Shown here piece by piece: positions 7,868 to 34,664 of a DNA stretch of 64,000 nucleotides (position 1 is its first letter; every line of letters starts with the position of its first letter). The notes below the pieces were generated by a model. It saw only the letters and a list, made by a program, of their open reading frames with translations. It was not told the DNA's origin and ran no database searches. The DNA comes from Chloroflexota bacterium (GTDB lineage Bacteria > Chloroflexota > UBA11872 > VXNJ01). The DNA lies in assembly GCA_965261345.1 (NCBI GenBank), contig OZ253449.1:128001-192000 (forward strand), read 5' to 3'. A program made the position numbers and the translations under genes.

Positions 7868-9805
7868 ATTCACGGTAGGAACACCGGTTGCCCGATGCCC
7901 CCCGTACAGATCCCGGCGTGCGCGTTAACGCACCGGGCTCCTAGCTTGAGTATCTAACGGCAAAGCGCTGGGCGGGCCATGGGTGGCGGATTTGGACGGG
8001 CGGCCAGAGTTGGTCGCAAAGCTGGCTGATGCGCTCCCAGGTGGTGCGATCTTTGTCCGAGCGACGCTGCAGGGTGCGTTTCCAATGCCATTGCAGCCGT
8101 TGGCGGAATCGACAAAGGGACGGATAACTGGTGGGGACGGCGTAATAGTTGAGCCATCCGTTCAGCACCATCCCGAGCCATTGCCCGGTCTGCATCGGAT
8201 CATCGTGCATGCGCATACGCAGCTTCTCTTTGATCGCCTTCAGGGTGCGTCGTACTCGCTTGGCGATGGGCTTGCGTCCCAGTTTGAAGCCGCCGCTGCG
8301 GGTTCTTGAGCAGTAGTGCGTTAGGCCGAGGAAGTCAAAAGTCTCCGGACGGCTGTCGTTACGCTGGCGGCGATTCTCGATCGCGTATCTGCCGAACTCG
8401 ATCAGGCGGGTCTTGTGGGCTGCAAGCTCTAATCCGTACTCTTCTAGCCTGTCTCGCAAATCCTTTGCAAATCTGACCGCATCGCTGCGGTACTCAAATC
8501 CCAGGACGAAGTCATCGGCATACCTGACGATGTAGACCTCGCCGCTGGCCCTTTTGGGTCGCCATTCCTTGGCAAACCATGAGTCCAGGACTTTGTGCAG
8601 GTACACGTTGGCAAGCAGCGGCGATATCGGCGCCCCTTGCGGTGTTCCCTGCACGCTGTCGGATAGTTCTCCGGCTTCCATTACTCCGGTGCTCAGCCAT
8701 TTGCGGATTAGGCGCAGGACGCGGTTGTCTCCGATTCGCTCTCCCAGGAACGAGATGAGTCGCTCGCGGTCGAGATGGTCGAAGAAGCCTTTTATGTCGG
8801 CGTCAAGAATCCAGTTGACTTTTCTCCGTTCGATGGCGTAGGCCAGGGCGTCCAGCGCGTCGTGCGCTGATCTTTTTGGCCGGAACCCGTATGCGAACCC
8901 GGCGAACTCCGATTCATAGATCGGGTCAAGGATCTGTTGACACACCGCCCGCTGCAGGATCTTGTCCTCTATGGATGCGATTCCAAGCGCTCGCTTCCCG
9001 CCGTCCGGTTTGGGTATCGCTACCCGCAGGACGGGGGTCGCTCGGTATGCTCCTTTGTGCACGCGGTCTTTAAGGTCGAGAAGTTTCTCTTCCAGGTTTT
9101 CCTCGTACATCCTCCACGTGATCCCGTCGGCGCCGGGAGCGGCATTGGGTTTTAGCCCGTAGAACGCATCCCTTAGCGCGTCAAGGTCTATGTGGTGTAA
9201 GAGCGCGGTGAGTTTTCCCTCTGGGTTCTCTTTGGCGTGTTGCCGTACGCGTTCGGCTCCGGGTGACACGGGAACCCACCCCTGGGTGTAGTCCGTGCCG
9301 GTGCCTGGCGCGTTCCTCTTGCTTGCGGCCCTTTCCTCCGGCGGCTCCGCCGGGGTTTTACGCCCCATTGTTCGCCGCCTTCGCAGGTACTATGGCCGCA
9401 TCAGACTTCTGCACATCGTGCATCATCGGATTGCGAAACTCCTTCCTTCCCGATGCGGCCCCGGATCTGCGAGTGAACCGGGGTAATGCGCAGATCTCCC
9501 AGTTCCCGGCCCGGGACTTACGTACGTACATGAGTTCTTTGACACCGTCGAGCCCGGCTGACGGCTGGCCATCTATTGCCGCCGCCGGTGTTGCCTTCGA
9601 CCAGAATCACGGTCTCGGCGCTCGGGACAAACCCGATGTTTCGGTGCTCCATAGCTCTGTCCGCACGCTCCGCTGCCGACGCTTCACCGACCGTCTCGCG
9701 ACGGCCTGCGCACGGCTCGCGGGCTGATGTGGGCTGGCTCTCGCCCTTCATCCCGGGAGACTTTCACTCCTTGTCCTGGTACCAGTTGGACTGGCTGTTC
9801 TGACT
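7868..9805 (-). mobile_element. Group II intron (bacterial class E-like) inserted in IS3 orfA
   Basis: Domain V gagcccggtgcgttaacgcgcacgccgggatctg and a domain VI hairpin follow the IEP stop; exons resume the IS3 orfA sequence on both sides. Confidence 0.9.
7941..9368 (-). CDS. ltrA: Group II intron reverse transcriptase/maturase without an endonuclease domain
   Basis: APGADG, GFRPKRS, DIKGFFD, GTPQG, RYADD, FDFLG, GWLNYY. Confidence 0.97.
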   Translation of the reverse strand: MGRKTPAEPPEERAASKRNAPGTGTDYTQGWVPVSPGAERVRQHAKENPEGKLTALLHHIDLDALRDAFYGLKPNAAPGADGITWRMYEENLEEKLLDLKDRVHKGAYRATPVLRVAIPKPDGGKRALGIASIEDKILQRAVCQQILDPIYESEFAGFAYGFRPKRSAHDALDALAYAIERRKVNWILDADIKGFFDHLDRERLISFLGERIGDNRVLRLIRKWLSTGVMEAGELSDSVQGTPQGAPISPLLANVYLHKVLDSWFAKEWRPKRASGEVYIVRYADDFVLGFEYRSDAVRFAKDLRDRLEEYGLELAAHKTRLIEFGRYAIENRRQRNDSRPETFDFLGLTHYCSRTRSGGFKLGRKPIAKRVRRTLKAIKEKLRMRMHDDPMQTGQWLGMVLNGWLNYYAVPTSYPSLCRFRQRLQWHWKRTLQRRSDKDRTTWERISQLCDQLWPPVQIRHPWPAQRFAVRYSS

Positions 9806-10103
9806 TGTTCGGGCGAGTACTTTCGCTTCGCCATTGCTGTCCCTTTTCGTTGGAACCAGATTATTCACATTCCCTCTGGTACCAATGAGGCAATTGTCTT
9901 GATTGTCAATTCCGGCAGAGGTGGGGTCAGAGGGGTCCAGGAGAAAGGGGAGGATAGATCCAGCGCCCCGACCGCGGTTCATAGTGACCGCAGCCCGATC
10001 GACAGGCGATAACCGGATGCGTAATCGCCGCAATAGCCCGATCCCGGGCATGGCTTCGCCAGGGACCTTGCCCGCAAGAGCGATCGGACCTGCCCGGCGT
10101 TCA

Positions 10104-11323
<1,220 letters not shown>

Positions 11324-11516
11324 TTAGAGCAACACACGTAAAAGGATATGCGCACATGACCCAACTGTGGAAGTCGTTGTGGATCGCCTGGATCAGGATA
11401 TATCATCCCTTATACAGGCTGGCGTCGATCGTCAATTGGCAGGCGTCGCCGGTTGTCGGATCGGGCTATGGTTGCGTAACAGCTTTATCATTACTCTTTC
11501 AGGAAGGACGATGCCG

Positions 11517-11969
11517 ATGTCTGCCGCCAATGATCCCAAGATCGAGTTCCTGCGAAGCTGCGGGGCGCTCAATCCCCATCCCGAGCGGGTGGGCGACGAA
11601 CTCTTCGCCGGGCATGACTTCTTCGACCCGCGCGATCTTTGCCAGGTGCGTTACGAGATGCTGCGGCGGGTGTTTGTCGATGAACGTAGGGTGTCTGACA
11701 GCGCCCGTCTCTACGGTTACTCCCGCCCGACCTGGTACAACGTCGCCCGGGTCTACCGGGTCGGCGGCCTGGCCGGACTCCTATCCGAGCGCCCCGGTCC
11801 GCGTAAAGCGCGCAAGCTGGTCCCCGAGATCGTTTTGTTCATTGAGCAGGTGCGACGGGAGCACCCCGGTCTGGGGGCGGCGGCGCTGGCGCGGTTGGTC
11901 AACGAGCATTTCGGCGTATCGGTGCACCGCTGCAGCATCGAGCGGGCGTTGCGGCGCGCAAAAAATTAA
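11517..11969 (+). CDS. Helix-turn-helix protein of the recombinase element
   Basis: RBS aggaagga at 11501; FFDPRDL.QVRYEMLRRV...GYSRPTWY...GLAGLL...PGPR. Confidence 0.85.
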   Translation: MSAANDPKIEFLRSCGALNPHPERVGDELFAGHDFFDPRDLCQVRYEMLRRVFVDERRVSDSARLYGYSRPTWYNVARVYRVGGLAGLLSERPGPRKARKLVPEIVLFIEQVRREHPGLGAAALARLVNEHFGVSVHRCSIERALRRAKN

Positions 11970-12406
11970 CCATCCCGGACCAGAGTCCGGGTACAGCACC
12001 GCAGCCGCCGGTCGCCGCCTACGAGAAACTGCGCCGCCAGGCGCTCGCTCCCGACGGGGGCTCGGACTGGCGCAGCCTGGCGATCATCCGCCGACGAGGG
12101 ATCCCGGCCTGGCTGGCCCGGCGTCCCGCATCCACGGCCCCGGGGCCATCGTCGCCGCACCGGGCCGGATCGGCCGAACTGCTCGACATCCTGCTGGGAT
12201 TGGCGCTGGGATCGGAGTCCGGCGGTGATCGATCAGATGCAACGCAGGGTGACCGCGCAGCATCTTGCCCGCCGGGCCTTCCTGTACGTGCGGCAGTCAA
12301 CCCTGCGGCAGGTGATGGAGAACCGGGAGAGCACCCGCCGCCAGTACGATCTGCGCCGCCGGGCGCGTTCGCTGGGCTGGGCGCCGGAGCAGATCTGCGT
12401 CATTGA
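11960..12406 (+). CDS. -1-frame extension of the HTH gene (Y4bB-like small helical domain)
   Basis: Open -1 frame from the slippery site: AYEKLRRQAL...LAIIRRRGIPAWL...ELLDILLGLAL; no start codon before the helical segment. Confidence 0.6.
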   Translation, partial: KKLTIPDQSPGTAPQPPVAAYEKLRRQALAPDGGSDWRSLAIIRRRGIPAWLARRPASTAPGPSSPHRAGSAELLDILLGLALGSESGGDRSDATQGDRAASCPPGLPVRAAVNPAAGDGEPGEHPPPVRSAPPGAFAGLGAGADLRH

Positions 12407-14298
12407 CTCGGACCTGGGGCGGTCGGGAGCCGACTCGGACCGCAAGGGTTTCCAGCGTCTGGTCAGCGAGGTGTCGCTGGGGCGGGCCGGGATCGTGCTG
12501 GGCCTGGAGGTCTCGCGCCTGGCGCGCAACAACGCCGACTGGCATCGCCTGCTGGAGCTGTGCGCGCAGTCAGACACATTGATCCTGGACGAGGATGGGA
12601 TCTACAGCCCGGCCCAGTACAACGACCGCCTGCTGCTGGGCCTTAAAGGCACCATGTCGGAGGCCGAGCTGCACGTGATGAAGGCCCGCCTGCTGGGCGG
12701 AGTGCGGGCCAAGGCCGAGCGCGGCGAGCTGCGCTGCCGGCTGCCGGTGGGCTTTGTCTACGATCCGCTGGATAGGGTCGCGCTCGATCCCGACGCCCAG
12801 GTACGCGACACCCTAAAGACGTTCTTTACCGTCTACGAGCGCACCGGTTCGGCGCGGGCGGTGGTCGTCTACTTCAACACTCGCTCGCTCTCCTTCCCGA
12901 CGCGCCCCTACCACGGGCCGCGCAAGGACGAACTCTTCTGGGACCAGCTCACCCACGCGCGCGCCATCCTGGTCCTGTCACAACCCGCGCTACGCCGGAG
13001 CGTTCGCCTGGGGGCGCTATCGCACCCGGCGCGTCAACGGACGCGACCGCAGGGTACGGACGCCCCGGGACGAGTGGAGGGTGCTGATCACCGATCACCA
13101 CCCCGGTTACATCACCTGGGAGCGGTTCGAGCGCAACCAGGAGACGCTCTCGCGGTCGGCCCGTTCCTGGAGGCGCGAGGGCCAGGGCGGTCCGCCGCGC
13201 GAGGGATCGGCGCTCCTGCAGGGCATTGCCGTCTGCGGGAAATGCGGCAAACGCATGACGACCCACTATGACAATCGCGGCCGGCAACTCAGGCCCCGCT
13301 ATGTCTGTCGCCGCGAGGGCGTCGACAAGGGGCTGCCGGTCTGCCAGTCGGTTCCCGGGACGGCGATCGATGCGGCGGTCGCGGAGCTGGTGCTCGAACT
13401 TATGAATCCGCAGATGCTCGAGTTGGCGCTCTCGGCCCAGGACGAGCTGCGGCGGCGCATTCACGAGGCCGATGCATTGCGGGCCAAGGCGGTGCAGCGG
13501 CTGGAGGAGGAGGTCGACCTGGCGGGGCGACGCCATCGGATGGCCGATCCGTCCAACCGCCTGGTAGTCGATGTGCTCGAGGCCGAGTGGAACGCCTGCC
13601 TGCTGCGCCTGCAGGACGCGTCAGACGAGCAGGCCAGGCAGCGCGAGCAGGACCGGGCCGAGCTGAGCGAGCGCCAGCGCAAGCGGATCAAGGCCCTGGC
13701 GACCGACTTCCCGGCGCTCTGGAGCGACCCGGCAACCCCGGCAAAGCAGCGCAAGCGCATGCTTGGCCACCTGATCGCCGATGTGACCATCGTCAAGAGT
13801 GGGGAGATCGGCGTGGGGGTGCGCCTGCGCGGCGGCGCTGACCGCCGGTTTAAGCTTCCCCTGCCGCTGTCGGCAGCCGATCGGTACCGCACCGACCCGG
13901 GCGTGGTTGCCCTGCTCGATCAACTGCTGGCGGATCACTCCTATGCCGAGATCGCCGCGATCCTTAACCAGCGCGGCGTCCGCACCGGGCGTGGCAACGC
14001 CTTCAACGCCAGGAAGGTCTACGTGCTGCGGCGCGATCACGATCTCAAGACCAGGTATGAGCGACGGCGCGATCTGGGTCTGCTCACCGGCCGCGAGGTG
14101 GCGGCGCTCCTGGGTATAGCACCGACTATGGTCAACGGCCTGCGGCGGAGTGGACGCCTGCAGGGCGCAAACACCGGTGGCAACCGCTGGCTTTACGAGA
14201 GGCCCGCCAACCTGGGCGAACTACGATCAAGCATCCGCCGACCGGTCAGATCACCAGCCGACGGTTGCGAGTCGAACGAGGTGCAGTATGCAAGGTGA
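12225..14298 (+). pseudogene. Large serine recombinase (resolvase, recombinase and Zn-ribbon domains) with one extra base at ~12977
   Basis: YVRQST, DLGRSG, EVSRLARN, (H)NPRYAG, CGKCG..M, YVC; removing one T restores VLHNPRYAG, so this may be a sequencing error. Confidence 0.9.
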
Positions 14299-14364
14299 TC
14301 CTTGGCAACGTCGACGCCCACATACACGTCCTCGCGCATGCAAAACTCCCTATAGTTACTCTCA

Positions 14365-14515
14365 GCGCTACGCCCTTCCTTGCAAATTCGGGGTCACGCC
14401 CACCAAGGCAATTGTTCGGGGTCTATGCGCCGGGAGATCCGGGTGCGGCGAGCGTGCTTCATTACGGTCTCAACGGACCAAGGGGAATGCGTCCTACCGC
14501 ACCCGGGACTTCCCA
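14365..14515 (-). ncRNA. Predicted bridge RNA of IS110-A
   Basis: cccgggtgcgg/ccgcacccgg stem enclosing guides that match its own flanks; donor guide acaattgcc matches the right end; boundaries approximate. Confidence 0.8.
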
Positions 14516-14699
14516 TTTGGAACATACAAGGGGAGCAGGCCACGTTGACGGTGGCCGATTCGGGACATATTGACGATTGCGATGGCCGGTGCGCAGCGAG
14601 AAGACGCCCGTCGCGGGGCCCGATCGGCCCCAATCCGGGTCGATCAGCCGGGTCGGTGACGGATGCGGATCAGGTCCGTTCCGACACAAATTGGGCCGG

Positions 14700-17992: not shown

Positions 17993-18338
17993 GTTAAATC
18001 CCCTTTGACCAACTGCGCGGTAGATTCGGTCCGCAGAAATTCATTGCCAAACCGATTATTGGCCAACGAGTTGGATTCATTCTGGCCCACGACAACGATG
18101 CGCTTGTAACCGTAGCAATCGTCTTGAATGTCAAATGCGTAGAGGTGGGATGAGAGGGGTCCGGGGGAGATAGGGGAGGAGATATCCAGCGCCCCGACCG
18201 CGGTTCATAGCGAACGCAGCCCCGATCGGGCTCGATCGAGAAGCGGTAACCGGATGCGGAATCGCCGCGAGAGCCCGATCCCGGACAAGGGCTTCGCCCG
18301 GGACCTTGCTCGCAGAGCGGTCGGGACCTACAAGGCGT

Positions 18339-20525
<2,187 letters not shown>

Positions 20526-30005: not shown

Positions 30006-31079
30006 ATGTCGATGAGAGACGGACCAATGGCTGGGAAGGTGCAGACCGTTCAAGGGCCGATGGCCCCCGATGAACTGGGTATAACGCTCGCGCACGAGCA
30101 CCTGCTGATCGACCTGTCGCCAACCTACAACCCGCCCACCGGGGCCAGCGATCTTGACTTTTGGGAGAAACCGGTCTCAATCGAGACGTTGGGCCGCATC
30201 CGGCACCACTCCTCGCGCAATAGGGACAACACGATCCTGAGCGACATCCCCACCGCCGTGGACGAGATCAACCTATACCGGCAGTACGGGGGCGGGTCGC
30301 TCGTCGAGGCCACCAGCAACGGCATCGCACGCGACCCCCTCGGGCTGGCCCGAATCTCCCGTGCAACCGGTGTGAACGTGATAATGGGGTCATCGTACTA
30401 CGTAGACGCCACACATCCGCCCGATATGGACAGCCGCAGCGAGGAGGCTATCCAGGAGGAGATAGTGCGGGATGTAAACGACGGGGCGCAGGGTACGGCC
30501 ATACGGTCCGGCGTCATCGGGGAGATCGGTTGCTCGTGGCCCCTGACGGACAACGAGCGGAAGGTACTGCGCGCCTCGGCTCGCGCCCAGCGGATGACCG
30601 GAGCCCCGCTTCTCATACATCCCGGAAGGGACGAGACCGCGCCGCTGGAGATCCTAGAGGTACTAGATGAGGCGGGCGCCGACCTCAGTCGGACCATCAT
30701 GGGACACCTAGACCGCACCGTGTTTCTGCGAGAAATCCTGGGCCGGATCGCCGAATCGGGATGCTACCTGGAATGGGATCTGTTCGGCAGGGAGGAATCC
30801 CTGTACGCTTTCAACCCCAACATCGACATGCCCAGCGACGCCAAGCGGATGGACGACATCGCGTGGGCCGCGTCGAAAGGCCACGGCCGGAAGATCGTGG
30901 TGGCCCACGACATCTGCTCAAAGTACCGGCTCCACCGGTACGGTGGCCACGGATACTACTATCTGCTGGGCAACATAGCCCCAAGGATGAGCGCGCGCGG
31001 ATTCCCGTCCGAGCTGGTGGACGACATATTCGTCAACAACCCCCGCGACATCCTGACGTTTGTCGAGCCGCGGACCTGA
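30006..31079 (+). CDS. Phosphotriesterase-related amidohydrolase
   Basis: TLAHEHL, GEIG, IHPG, GHLDR, HDIC; start may be at 30027. Confidence 0.92.
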   Translation: MSMRDGPMAGKVQTVQGPMAPDELGITLAHEHLLIDLSPTYNPPTGASDLDFWEKPVSIETLGRIRHHSSRNRDNTILSDIPTAVDEINLYRQYGGGSLVEATSNGIARDPLGLARISRATGVNVIMGSSYYVDATHPPDMDSRSEEAIQEEIVRDVNDGAQGTAIRSGVIGEIGCSWPLTDNERKVLRASARAQRMTGAPLLIHPGRDETAPLEILEVLDEAGADLSRTIMGHLDRTVFLREILGRIAESGCYLEWDLFGREESLYAFNPNIDMPSDAKRMDDIAWAASKGHGRKIVVAHDICSKYRLHRYGGHGYYYLLGNIAPRMSARGFPSELVDDIFVNNPRDILTFVEPRT

Positions 31080-31121
31080 GATTCCACGCCGTTGACACCC
31101 CTGTACCTTGTATGTTCCAAA

Positions 31122-31275
31122 TGGGAAGTCCCGGGTGCGGTAGGGCGCCTGTACCTTGGTCCATTGAGACCGTTTTAAAGCACGCTCGCCGCACCCGGAT
31201 CTCCCGGCGCATAGACCCCGAACAATTGCTCGGTGGGCTCTAGACCCCGTATTCGCAAGGAAGGGCGTAGCGTCG
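31122..31275 (+). ncRNA. Predicted bridge RNA of IS110-D
   Basis: 31148-31158 cctgtaccttg is identical to the junction at 31100-31110; acaattgct (31222-30) is identical to the right end. Confidence 0.85.
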
Positions 31276-31288
31276 GGAGTAACTATAG

Positions 31289-32248
<960 letters not shown>

Positions 32249-32984
32249 ACGCCTGGCAGGTCCGATCGCTCTTGCGGGCAAGGTCCCTGGCGAAGCCATG
32301 CCCGGGATCGGGCTATTGCGGCGATTACGCATCCGGTTATCGCCTGTCGATCGGGCTGCGGTCACTATGAACCGCGGTCGGGGCGCTGGATCTATCCTCC
32401 CCTTTCTCCTGGACCCCTCTGACCCCACCTCTGCCGGAATTGACAATCAAGACAATTGCTTTTAAGAGCTTCATTCGCCCAGGCGACCACGGTATGCGCG
32501 GTGCCTTGCTTGTGGCAAACGTAGTCAGGTCGGCTGGCCGGGAGTAACCAATCGCCCCTCGTGCCTTATTGAATATCTTGGGGGGACCAGTACCTCGGCC
32601 AGAGCTGGCCGCGGTGGATGCCCGGTGGAGAGATCGCGTTTGGCTCTAAGTCCGTGGCGGTCGCAGAACCGGCGCATCGACGAGCAGGAGACTGAGATGC
32701 CGCGCTCGATCAGCAGTTCATGGATGCGGGTGAGCTGGAGCCTGTCGGTCTGGAGCCACTGCTTTATTTTCTCGGTGTGGGTCAAGGGGTGTCGGCGGCC
32801 GGGGTGATGACCCCAGTCGGGGTGGTCAGGTTGAGCGCGGTCAGTTTGGCCAACTGGTCGTCGGTCGGATCGGGGCCGCCGGGCTGAAGGCCCAGTTCCT
32901 GGGCGGCGTTTACATAGCGCCGCACGGTGTCGCGGACGCGGCTTGAGATCTTGGTGATCAACGACAACTATTCTGTCCGGTTCC

Positions 32985-34664
32985 CGTTGCCTCACCAAAA
33001 AATGTAACCGAAATTTGGGACCGTTTATTTGACTCCGATTGGCGCGATTTCACTTACGATTTCGGCGTTCTCAACCGCACCATCAGCACCGTTTACGACT
33101 CCGTATACAAGCTCTTTGGCCATCACCGACCGCCATTGCTTGAGCCTTCGCTGCAACGTCCGCAGCTGCTTGGGCCCGACGGCGTCGGGGTGATCACGCA
33201 TGAGCACTTTCAGGATCTGCATGCCGCTGGCGTCGGGATGATCCTGCAGGTAGGTAAGCGCCGCGGGCCAGACGTGCTCTAGGGGGTCGGGGCAAGTCCG
33301 CCACCACCTGCGGCGCTTTCGTTTTGGACGGCGGGTCGGATTTGCATCGCCCTCGCGCCACAGATGAGAGAGCTTGGCTAAGGAACTGCGACAGATCATC
33401 CTTTTGCACCTTGCTTCTTTCCTCGGGCGATGCCAATGTGGCCAGGGCCGACTGGGCCTGGCGGATCTCGCTAAGGAGCAAGAGCGGATCCAGTTGCAAG
33501 CGCGTAGCGCGCAACCCCTCCTTGACCTTTTCGGCAACGGCGGGGTGATCGAGCAGGCGCTGGCAGGGAGTTAGCGGACGGTCGTAGCGCTTTTGGGTTC
33601 TGGCTCCATAGCGCTGCTTGGAGATCAGTTTGAAAGACGGTTGGAAGAAATTGGTGTAGAGACCAACTAAGGCAAAGAGTCGGGCCAGGGTCTGTCCGGC
33701 GATGAGGCCGGCAAAGCGCTCGTAACCGGCAAAGCGTCTGATTACGGCGCCGTTCTTCTGTTCGATGTAGGCCTGATCGTTGGAGCGGTAGGCGCGGGAG
33801 CGGGTGAACTCGATTTCACGCTCTTGGCAGTAATCGATAAGGGTCTGGGAGATAAAGGCGCTGTCGTTGTCAGTATCGATTCCAAGTATTGGCACCGGTA
33901 CCCGCCCGCCTATAACCTCAAGCGCCTCGGTCACAAGCGTCTGCTCCCTTGCCAGCAGCGGGACTGCCTCCACCCAGCCCGAGCACACATCGGTAACCGA
34001 CAGGGACTGGATGAAGCTCCCGGCCATGTTGCCACCACAGTGGGCCACCAGATCTATTTCCAGGTAGCCGGGGTCGGGGCCATGCCAATCGGCAAACGTC
34101 CGGATCGGGACCTTGGCGTGATGACGGTTGCGGCGGCGGGGGTGACGCCGTCGACTGCTGCCGGCGGTCTTGCGGACTGGTTTGAGGAGGCGATCGATCG
34201 ATGCCGGGCTGATCGCGAAGAGCTTGCTTTTAAGGTCCAGATCAAGCTGCAGGTGGCCATGCCCTTCCAGCGATTCGATCAGGCTGGGCAATATCGCTTG
34301 CAACCGTTTGCCGCAGATCCGATCGGCCGCTTCCCAGAGGATGATCAAAGACTCCCTGACGGCCTCGTCGTAGATGCGGTATGAGGACTTGGTGGGCGGT
34401 GCCGGAGCAGGGCTTGCAGCATTGCCCAGCAATCGGGTTGCGTATTTGCGGTTGTGGCCAGATAGAGCCACGAACTCGTTAAGGATTCCGCCCTTGTCGA
34501 TCTTGGACGCCCTCGCATAGCGGCCCCTTAAGGCCGCTAGCAGCTCCTTCCGCACCGCCCGGCTCAGCTTCTTTCCTCGCATCGGTTGCCTCCCTGTGGA
34601 TTTGGGTTACAAATCTAGTGAGGCAACGGCCCTGTTTGGGTTACAAAAACAGTGAGTCAATGCG
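32985..34664 (-). mobile_element. ISNCY-type DDE element; transposase 34582-33025 with a frameshift at ~33378
   Basis: PGYLEIDLVAHCG, DTDNDSAF, NDQAYIEQKN; repeated ggttaca...tgaggcaac end motifs. Confidence 0.85.

Follow-up and report, generated by a model that had tools for sequence, protein, structure and literature searches.

How can two insertion sequences of one family carry nearly the same recombinase and yet be aimed at different targets? The question is raised by IS110-D and IS110-A, which lie in a window of 64,000 nucleotides (the whole stretch of DNA analysed; G000:C1:128001-192000, within a single contig of 2.39 Mb). In the original prediction, two separate guides of a bridge RNA had been rewritten together on near-identical elements, with so little change elsewhere that the means of rewriting was itself the puzzle. 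We consider it highly probable that IS110-D is a guided insertion sequence of the IS621 type and that IS110-A is a dead recombinant of A-type and D-type lineages diverged by about 9%. The question as posed is thereby deflated; the apparent double rewriting would come from recombination between diverged copies.

Window positions 31100-31275 comprise the left flank and the left end (LE) of IS110-D, a member of the IS110 family. BLAST identified seven copies with a D-type LE in the genome, all with identical guides, and comparison of these copies set the boundaries of the element. The features of IS110-D and its copies are as follows:

31107-31108 and 32459-32460, plus strand: CT cores flanking IS110-D, read directly
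31109-32458, plus strand: IS110-D, a complete element of 1,350 bp
31131-31198, plus strand: target-binding loop of the D bridge RNA, from the single-sequence fold, the consensus fold of nine relatives and the guide-flank matches
31199-31278, plus strand: donor-binding loop region of the D bridge RNA, from an LDG equal to the right end plus core and from RDG covariation
31301-32248, plus strand: intact gene for the D recombinase (315 aa), from Pfam and the match to the IS621 structure
Genome 159109 (D), 41473, 20706, 813509, 14041 (c14k), 875274 (c875k, degenerate) and 268256 (c268k, interrupted): starts of the D-type LEs

The left flank reads CCTGTAC-CT (31100-31108), the LE starts at 31109, and the right end finishes in ACAATTG, followed by CT-TTTAAG from 32459; a CT core was found on both sides in all seven copies carrying the D guides, five of which retain an unbroken 315-aa frame. 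The D recombinase matched PF01548 (DEDD_Tnp_IS110; 6.9e-25, 88.1 bits) and PF02371 (Transposase_20; 7e-20, 71.7 bits), both above the Pfam cut-off, as well as the structures of the IS621 transposase (8wt6; E=1.6e-42 over residues 5-306) and of ISCro4 (9t56; E=1.7e-42). When matched by eye, its motifs, DSG among them, aligned with the IS621 stretches holding D11, E60, D102/D105 and S241, residues whose catalytic roles are taken from passages of PMC11208158.

Folded as a single sequence, the LE of D gave a long stem (D-positions 23-39 with 73-90) enclosing an internal loop and the target-loop hairpin, GGUCC..GACC. The consensus fold of nine same-genus relatives contained 34 pairs, six of them kept by changes on both sides, and the variable columns of the alignment were exactly the two sides of the loop, the stems being conserved. 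On one side lies the LTG, CCTGTAC+CT at 31148-31156 (the sequence reads CCTGTACCT(T) over 31148-31157), in the same sense as the left flank; on the other lies the RTG, GTTTTAAAG at 31172-31180, which is the complement of CT-TTAAA. Together the two guides predict CCTGTAC-CT-TTAAA, in agreement with the flanks of IS110-D. In the corresponding passages on IS621, the LTG pairs with the bottom strand, the RTG pairs with the top one, and both include the core (Durrant et al. 2024, PMC11208160). The D RTG is followed by CA, the complement of TG, the last two bases of the donor (right end), and its position would fit that of the published handshake. A TG after the LTG core was also considered as a handshake guide and was rejected, the relevant passage of PMC11208158 placing handshake guides after RTG and RDG.

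In the donor-binding loop, the LDG (ACAATTG+CT, 31222-31230) equals the element's own right end plus core at 9/9 positions, and the RDG (GTATTCGCAAG, 31249-31259) would be complementary to the element's own left end and finishes in GCAAG; together the four guides would direct insertion at a CT core. The RDG ending covaried with the first base of the LE in all nine aligned relatives, GCAAG occurring with an LE that starts in T and GCGAG with one that starts in C. The core within the LDG reads CC, not CT, in the A-type element and in most relatives. The computed fold of this loop was ambiguous and unstable, both for the single sequence and for the consensus. No Rfam family reached its gathering score in the D LE; the best match below threshold was sX15, an sRNA from Xanthomonas (32.5 bits, E=5e-4; gathering score 55), at window 31122-31284 on the minus strand, opposite to the bridge RNA, and the sX15 family may correspond to an IS110 left end.

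The Pfam domains, the 8wt6 match, the fold of the target loop and the orientation of the guides bear out the original assignment of these elements to the IS110 family with IS621-type bridge RNAs. Judged from its sequence, IS110-D is intact and belongs to the IS110/IS621 type, with a bridge RNA in its left end, and we infer that this RNA and related ones are active. Scans of the linear DNA from 30900 to 32600 found neither a promoter nor a terminator; a junction of right end, CT and left end would yield TTGACA, a 17-nt spacer and TATGTT, a predicted circle-junction promoter. Two metatranscriptome runs (shares 0.15 and 0.09) contained one contig of 165 nt over 31035-31195, with three other letters and a gap, and contigs were also present over the 3' end of the D gene; these contigs possibly come from a relative or from library DNA, and indicate neither transcription nor RNA ends.

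IS110-A, by comparison, is in pieces. Its parts are listed here with identities to D, to c14k and to an A-type element from G002, a same-genus genome:

9806-9890, minus strand: start of an IS3-family element with sites 1 and 2; site 1, the A-type site, is 12 nt inside the inverted repeat, and site 2 is just 5' of the ATG
9891-11014, minus strand: body and right end of IS110-A, D-type (1112/1124 to D, 1121/1124 to c14k, 1026/1127 to the G002 element)
11015-14301, plus strand: insertion of 3,287 bp that splits IS110-A, with CCAA at both junctions; the single full copy in the genome
14302-14528, minus strand: A-type left end, with the A bridge RNA and the first ~12 codons (226/227 to the G002 element, 201/230 to D)
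14481-14489 and 14457-14465, minus strand: the A guides, LTG and RTG respectively, read directly

On the minus strand, the LTG and RTG of IS110-A read CATTCCCCTT and GTAATGAAG. The element is flanked on the left by CTGCTCCC-CT, with the left core at 14529-14530, and its right junction is ACAATTG-CC-TCATTGG, in which the core at 9889-9890 is CC, not CT. All the guide and flank strings first quoted for A and D are present in the sequence on direct reading. The 12 nt to the left of IS110-A are the start of an IS3-family inverted repeat (TGGCC..GCTCCC; an element of 1,363 bp with HTH_21, rve and rve_3 domains in an intact copy), and the same repeat resumes on the right (TCATTGGTACC...). The A guides predict CATTCCC-CT-TCATT and match the flanks of IS110-A at 4/7 positions on the left and 5/5 on the right. 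The CC of the right core was also present in all ten uninterrupted IS3 repeats compared; because the T of the core is nearly invariant according to a passage of PMC11208158, such repeats should be poor targets, and the CC of IS110-A may be a later change or may derive from another IS3 copy.

From about 9805 downward the IS3-family element is interrupted by a group II intron (Rfam RF02005 at 9533-9764; RT ORF 7941-9368, within window 7941-9805, minus strand), and group II introns occur at position ~85-100 of several IS3-family copies. An insertion of 1.9 kb, its end 72% like the intron of window 7941-9805, interrupts c268k (genome 269286-271218) and, at an identical position in the gene, a B-type copy. 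The nesting of mobile elements is three deep. In the two IS3 copies with an IS110 at site 1 (that of A, and the one to the right of c14k), site 2 reads AAAAGGGAC instead of AAAGGGGAC (window 9832-9850, minus strand, and genome ~15440), a variant common to both, in which the CT core has become TT with loss of the second target.

The A gene itself is broken after codon ~12 by the 3,287-bp insertion. Two overlapping ORFs of this insertion specify a large serine recombinase (Pfam Resolvase, Zn_ribbon_recom, Recombinase and HTH_17), and a further ORF, of 302 aa, had no Pfam match. One end of this 3.3-kb element (...GGTAACTT/CCAA) abuts a second IS110 gene at the same codon (73% identical to D; genome 2361023-2361078). 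The site is in the stretch coding for GVDVAK, where the first catalytic Asp is found, and IS110 recombinase genes seem to be the specific integration target of the element. Elsewhere in the genome are three relatives with 71% identity.

When A was compared with D, the near-identity originally described for the two elements held for the body (98.9%), but not for A as a whole, which is split and whose LE is 88.9% identical. Among the 230 aligned LE columns, 29 differ, and 22 of the 29 lie outside the 12 guide positions. Differences outside the target guides affect the LDG core (CT>CC), the donor-loop hairpin (8/18), the RDG (2/11), the lower DBL stem and the first codons. The target loops do differ and ACAATTG is identical in both RNAs, as had been claimed.

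A search of 61 related genomes with the A LE gave matches in eight, G000 included, and among these eight a 99% match was found only in G002. There, an uninterrupted A-type element (L002) occupies the same position in an IS3-family repeat, TGGCCTGTTCCC-CT ... CT-TCATTGGCACC. Its LE agrees with that of A at 226/227 positions, whereas its body agrees with the A body at only 1026/1127; compared with D, it scores 202/230 in the LE and 1028/1127 (91%) in the body, with dS 0.147, dN 0.064 and 34/315 residues different on the frame of D. The G002 gene is itself frameshifted, and it is the sole known copy of the A-type body. An exact scan for the scaffold pattern, by which any copy with a scaffold change is missed, returned one stretch from the genome contigs, namely the G002 copy, and none from the metagenome contigs. 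The idea of little change elsewhere was thus not upheld, as much of the LE difference lies outside the guides and a native A-type body is only 91% identical to D.

We observed a mosaic pattern in copy A. Between A and D, the LE was far more diverged than the body (Fisher p=1.2e-14; p=1.5e-10 once the 12 guide positions were removed), whereas between the G002 element and D it was even when non-guide LE positions were compared with the body (Fisher p=0.70), with 83-95 identical positions per 100-column window. Because the A-D divergence is strongly non-uniform and the G002-D divergence uniform, A is taken to be the mosaic. In copy A, A-type alleles extend as far as D-position 213 and D-type alleles begin at 232, with the insertion at 227; the switch from A-type to D-type therefore falls within about 10 nt of the 3,287-bp insertion, and beyond it the closest relative of the body is c14k (1121/1124). 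On this evidence IS110-A is apparently a dead chimera, in which an A-type LE gives way to a D-type body where the serine-recombinase element is inserted, and the native A-type element would be a sister lineage about 9% from D.

Other accounts of these data were weighed. In the first, A and D form a single lineage of very recent origin (about 1% divergence) whose two target guides were both altered by fast changes restricted to the loops; the 98.9% identity of body and right end would be explained, as would the unchanged ACAATTG and a target-loop scaffold that differs at only 2/52 positions. We judge this extremely improbable, since most of the differing LE columns (22/29) are outside the guide positions, the body that carries the same LE allele in G002 differs from D by 9%, and the jump in divergence comes exactly at the 3.3-kb insertion. 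In the second, it is the G002 element that is recombinant, an A-type LE on a foreign body, and copy A retains the original A-type state. G002 does offer a single copy, and a pseudogene at that, but the evenness of its divergence from D, set against the sharp step in A, makes this very improbable as well. Finally, polishing of the assembly might possibly have drawn the repeated 1.1-kb body of A towards the majority copies, against which stand a private base at D-position 661 and a combination of alleles that is the body's own. The mosaic reading is retained: the near-identical recombinase of A and D would stem from recombination or gene conversion between IS copies, and the combination of the same protein with different guides is the product of such recombination, not of fast rewriting of two loops.

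For copy A, we infer the following order of events and routes of recombination. An A-type element would have inserted 12 nt inside the inverted repeat of the IS3-family element, and the 3.3-kb serine-recombinase element would then have split it after codon ~12; D-type sequence would since have come to occupy everything to the right of the 3.3-kb insertion, where it is found now. The D-type sequence could have arrived by gene conversion from a D-type copy, halted at the heterology, or by a crossover inside two copies of the inserted 3.3-kb element. A variant of this explanation, differing only by route, is that the halves of A were never one element and that a piece of A-type LE and a D-type 3' piece, left by separate insertions, were joined by a crossover within two serine-recombinase elements, with deletion of the intervening DNA. 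The 3.3-kb element would provide far better homology than IS bodies that are 91% identical, and its end at the same codon of another IS110 gene implies that multiple copies once existed; the unequal cores of IS110-A (CT left, CC right) and the left IS3 repeat, which is the variant TGGCCTGC where TGGCCGGC is usual, point the same way. However, one full copy of the 3.3-kb element remains, and the flanks fit one position in the IS3 repeat, as expected for a single insertion; we regard joined fragments as a possibility to be held only tentatively.

Recombination among IS copies is common in the G000 genome. Among the 21 polymorphic body sites listed, all four allele combinations at D-positions 408 and 990 were present among D, c14k, c41k and G002, and c268k contains a block about 25% divergent (positions 232-564) between near-identical parts. 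The SNPs common to the A body, c14k and c875k were also considered as a test of left-end conversion against delivery in trans; they were uninformative, because most of the alleles equal the G002 allele, and so look ancestral, and because the four-gamete pattern shows recombination.

Setting the chimera aside, real retargeting would have occurred between the two lineages themselves, at a dS of about 0.15 and with the loop scaffold nearly fixed. The A-type and D-type guides differ at 7/12 positions (4/7 in the left guide and 3/5 in the right), whereas the loop scaffold differs at 2/52 (p=4e-5). The comparison of guide with synonymous divergence proposed at the outset was made between the A-type element of G002 and the D-type, and gave 7/12 against a synonymous difference pS of 0.134 (binomial p=3e-4). 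The guides differ by substitutions of the same length, and no sign of block replacement was found between A-type and D-type. In this pair, guides change about four times faster than synonymous sites while the loop scaffold is nearly frozen, and nothing here points to a special process for altering both guides simultaneously in an element that otherwise stays the same.

Two further elements in the window carry guides of their own:

18116-19490, minus strand: IS110-B, about 70% identical to D; guides predict AACCCCG-CT-ACGGC
19493-20523, minus strand: IS110-C, a pseudogene truncated by B; guides predict CAATCCC-CT-TTCGT

If guide types are what is counted (A, B, C and D), the earlier tally of four guide/target pairs over 22 kb holds. 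Three B-type copies match their own guide at 8-10/12 positions, and at least one of them (B2) lies inside an IS3-family orfB. The D-type sites have in common only the left part, ...CCCTGTAC-CT-TT.., their right flanks being loosely alike; the IS110-D copy adjoins an rve-domain transposase gene (33194-34582, minus strand), and the D target is possibly the tip of the terminal repeat of another IS. Unoccupied perfect D-type targets (CTGTACCTTTAA and shorter variants) were not found in the genome, in which only left-half matches (CCTGTACCT) occurred. In this one genome there are four guide types or more, nearly all of them directed at other mobile elements.

In IS110-C, positions 1-48 of the LE are exactly duplicated in tandem (20476-20523 and 20428-20475, minus strand). 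The duplicated unit runs from the first base of the LE to the CT of its own LTG, and flank and LTG DNA have ATCCCCTCG in common. The duplication fits a copy that inserted into its own guide-coding DNA, a left-half mimic of the target, followed by recombination; slippage would fit too, since every insertion of this sort leaves a pair of 9-nt repeats. A further remnant, a 46-nt LE fragment at genome 115703 (LE positions 1-46, within 115703-115764), lies at IS3 site 2 and is joined directly to the IS3 inverted repeat. The join falls at CATTCCC, the sequence of the A-type LTG, which also occurs within the IS3 repeat; it would fit either a deletion through microhomology or an event at guide-coding DNA.

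To what extent guides track flanks was evaluated in a matrix of 16 insertions by seven guide types over the 12 non-core positions, with strings copied by hand; L010, L012 and L017 were left out (LT matches by eye 3/7, 2/7 and 3/7). An insertion's own guide was the best match in 14 of the 16, more often than chance would give, with scores of 7-12/12 in those cases. The D guide scored 9-12/12 at five D-type sites, of which c813k and c268k have the same right flank and agree over the final ~10 nt on the left, so that they are possibly not independent; the A-type guide scored 9-10/12 at two sites, those of A and G002. Guides were thus found to track flanks, as proposed, in five of seven D-guide copies, in A and in the G002 copy, but not in c14k and c875k, the two exceptions, which both carry the D guide and match other guides. 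The copy c875k lies at IS3 site 2, on the bottom strand just 5' of the ATG (CTGTCCC-CT-TTCGT), where the D guide scores 4/12 and the C guide 10/12. In c14k, a left half like site 2 (CAGTCCC-CT) is combined with the right half of the A site (CT-TCATT), and the D guide again scores 4/12, compared with 11/12 for the A guide. To the left of c14k is a full reversed IS3 copy without its first 56 nt, and to the right are IS3 positions 15-94; c14k would best be explained by a deletion through homologous recombination, involving one copy at site 2 and one at site 1. Contigs of other public runs, one of which is possibly the source sample, end in the left flank of c14k and the right flank of c875k; these junctions are therefore not peculiar to this assembly.

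The first arrival of a D/A-family element at site 2 could be due to C or A RNA acting in trans, to a left-half match of the A guide (the left half of site 2 matches it at 5-6/7 positions plus the core), or to later replacement of the LE. The A and C guides are encoded a few kb apart in the window, and the donor arms of C and D are identical on the left and differ at the first base on the right. Either the action of guide RNAs in trans or recombination subsequent to insertion would fit the two non-cognate D-guide copies. A broader suggestion, which we offer as speculative and rather doubtful, is that guides are shared among IS110 sub-families whose donor ends are the same: bridge RNAs of one sub-family would deliver the donors of another in trans, and the LE would be an exchangeable targeting cassette moved between bodies by recombination, copy A being an example. 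If this were true, the insertion record would be decoupled from an element's own guide, in a natural counterpart of the laboratory practice of supplying RNA in trans. The non-cognate insertions and mosaic copies are, in any case, testable cases for the use of bridge RNAs in trans and for modular exchange of targeting ends in nature. An IS110/IS1111-type element, of a different subgroup and in a different host element, reportedly has a specific target inside the terminal repeat of another transposable element.

Among known systems, IS621 as described in passages of PMC11208160 and of Hiraizumi et al. 2024 (PMC11208158) resembles IS110-D in its DEDD/RuvC-like and Tnp domains, in a noncoding RNA located in the left end upstream of the gene, in having two predicted loops with a left guide in top-strand sense, a complementary right guide and a CT core in the guides, and in the two bases after the RTG that complement the last two of the donor. 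It differs in that protein identity is about 30-40% by eye, guides and targets are others, and the targets considered here lie inside other insertion sequences; D, moreover, is known here from its sequence. Recombination of IS621 on a half match, in which one guide arm plus the CT core suffices for some insertion, is reported in parts of a preprint based on IS621 in vitro and E. coli data (10.64898/2026.08.31.748434), whereas our own argument proceeds from flanks; such a process could account for copies of the D/A family at the IS3 site that agrees with the A guide at 5-6/7 positions in its left half. The published assays, in the sections concerned, routinely supply the bridge or seekRNA in trans (PMC11208160, PMC11187229). 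Natural IS110 elements have already been binned by LTG and RTG and concordant target motifs found, according to a passage of PMC11208160, and the supplementary tables of natural guide/target bins of Durrant et al. may list similar close pairs. A further precedent is the pair ISEc11 and ISXne4, for which passages of Siddiquee et al. 2024 (PMC11187229) describe natural re-direction of an IS by replacement of the target-detecting part of the seekRNA; these too are sister elements with differing guide segments and a conserved RNA fold, and their RNA supports movement in trans, although they are IS1111-type, with the RNA downstream and transposases 72% identical. The A-type/D-type pair is closer, with proteins that differ at 34/315 residues, and its difference in guides is natural retargeting of this already published kind.
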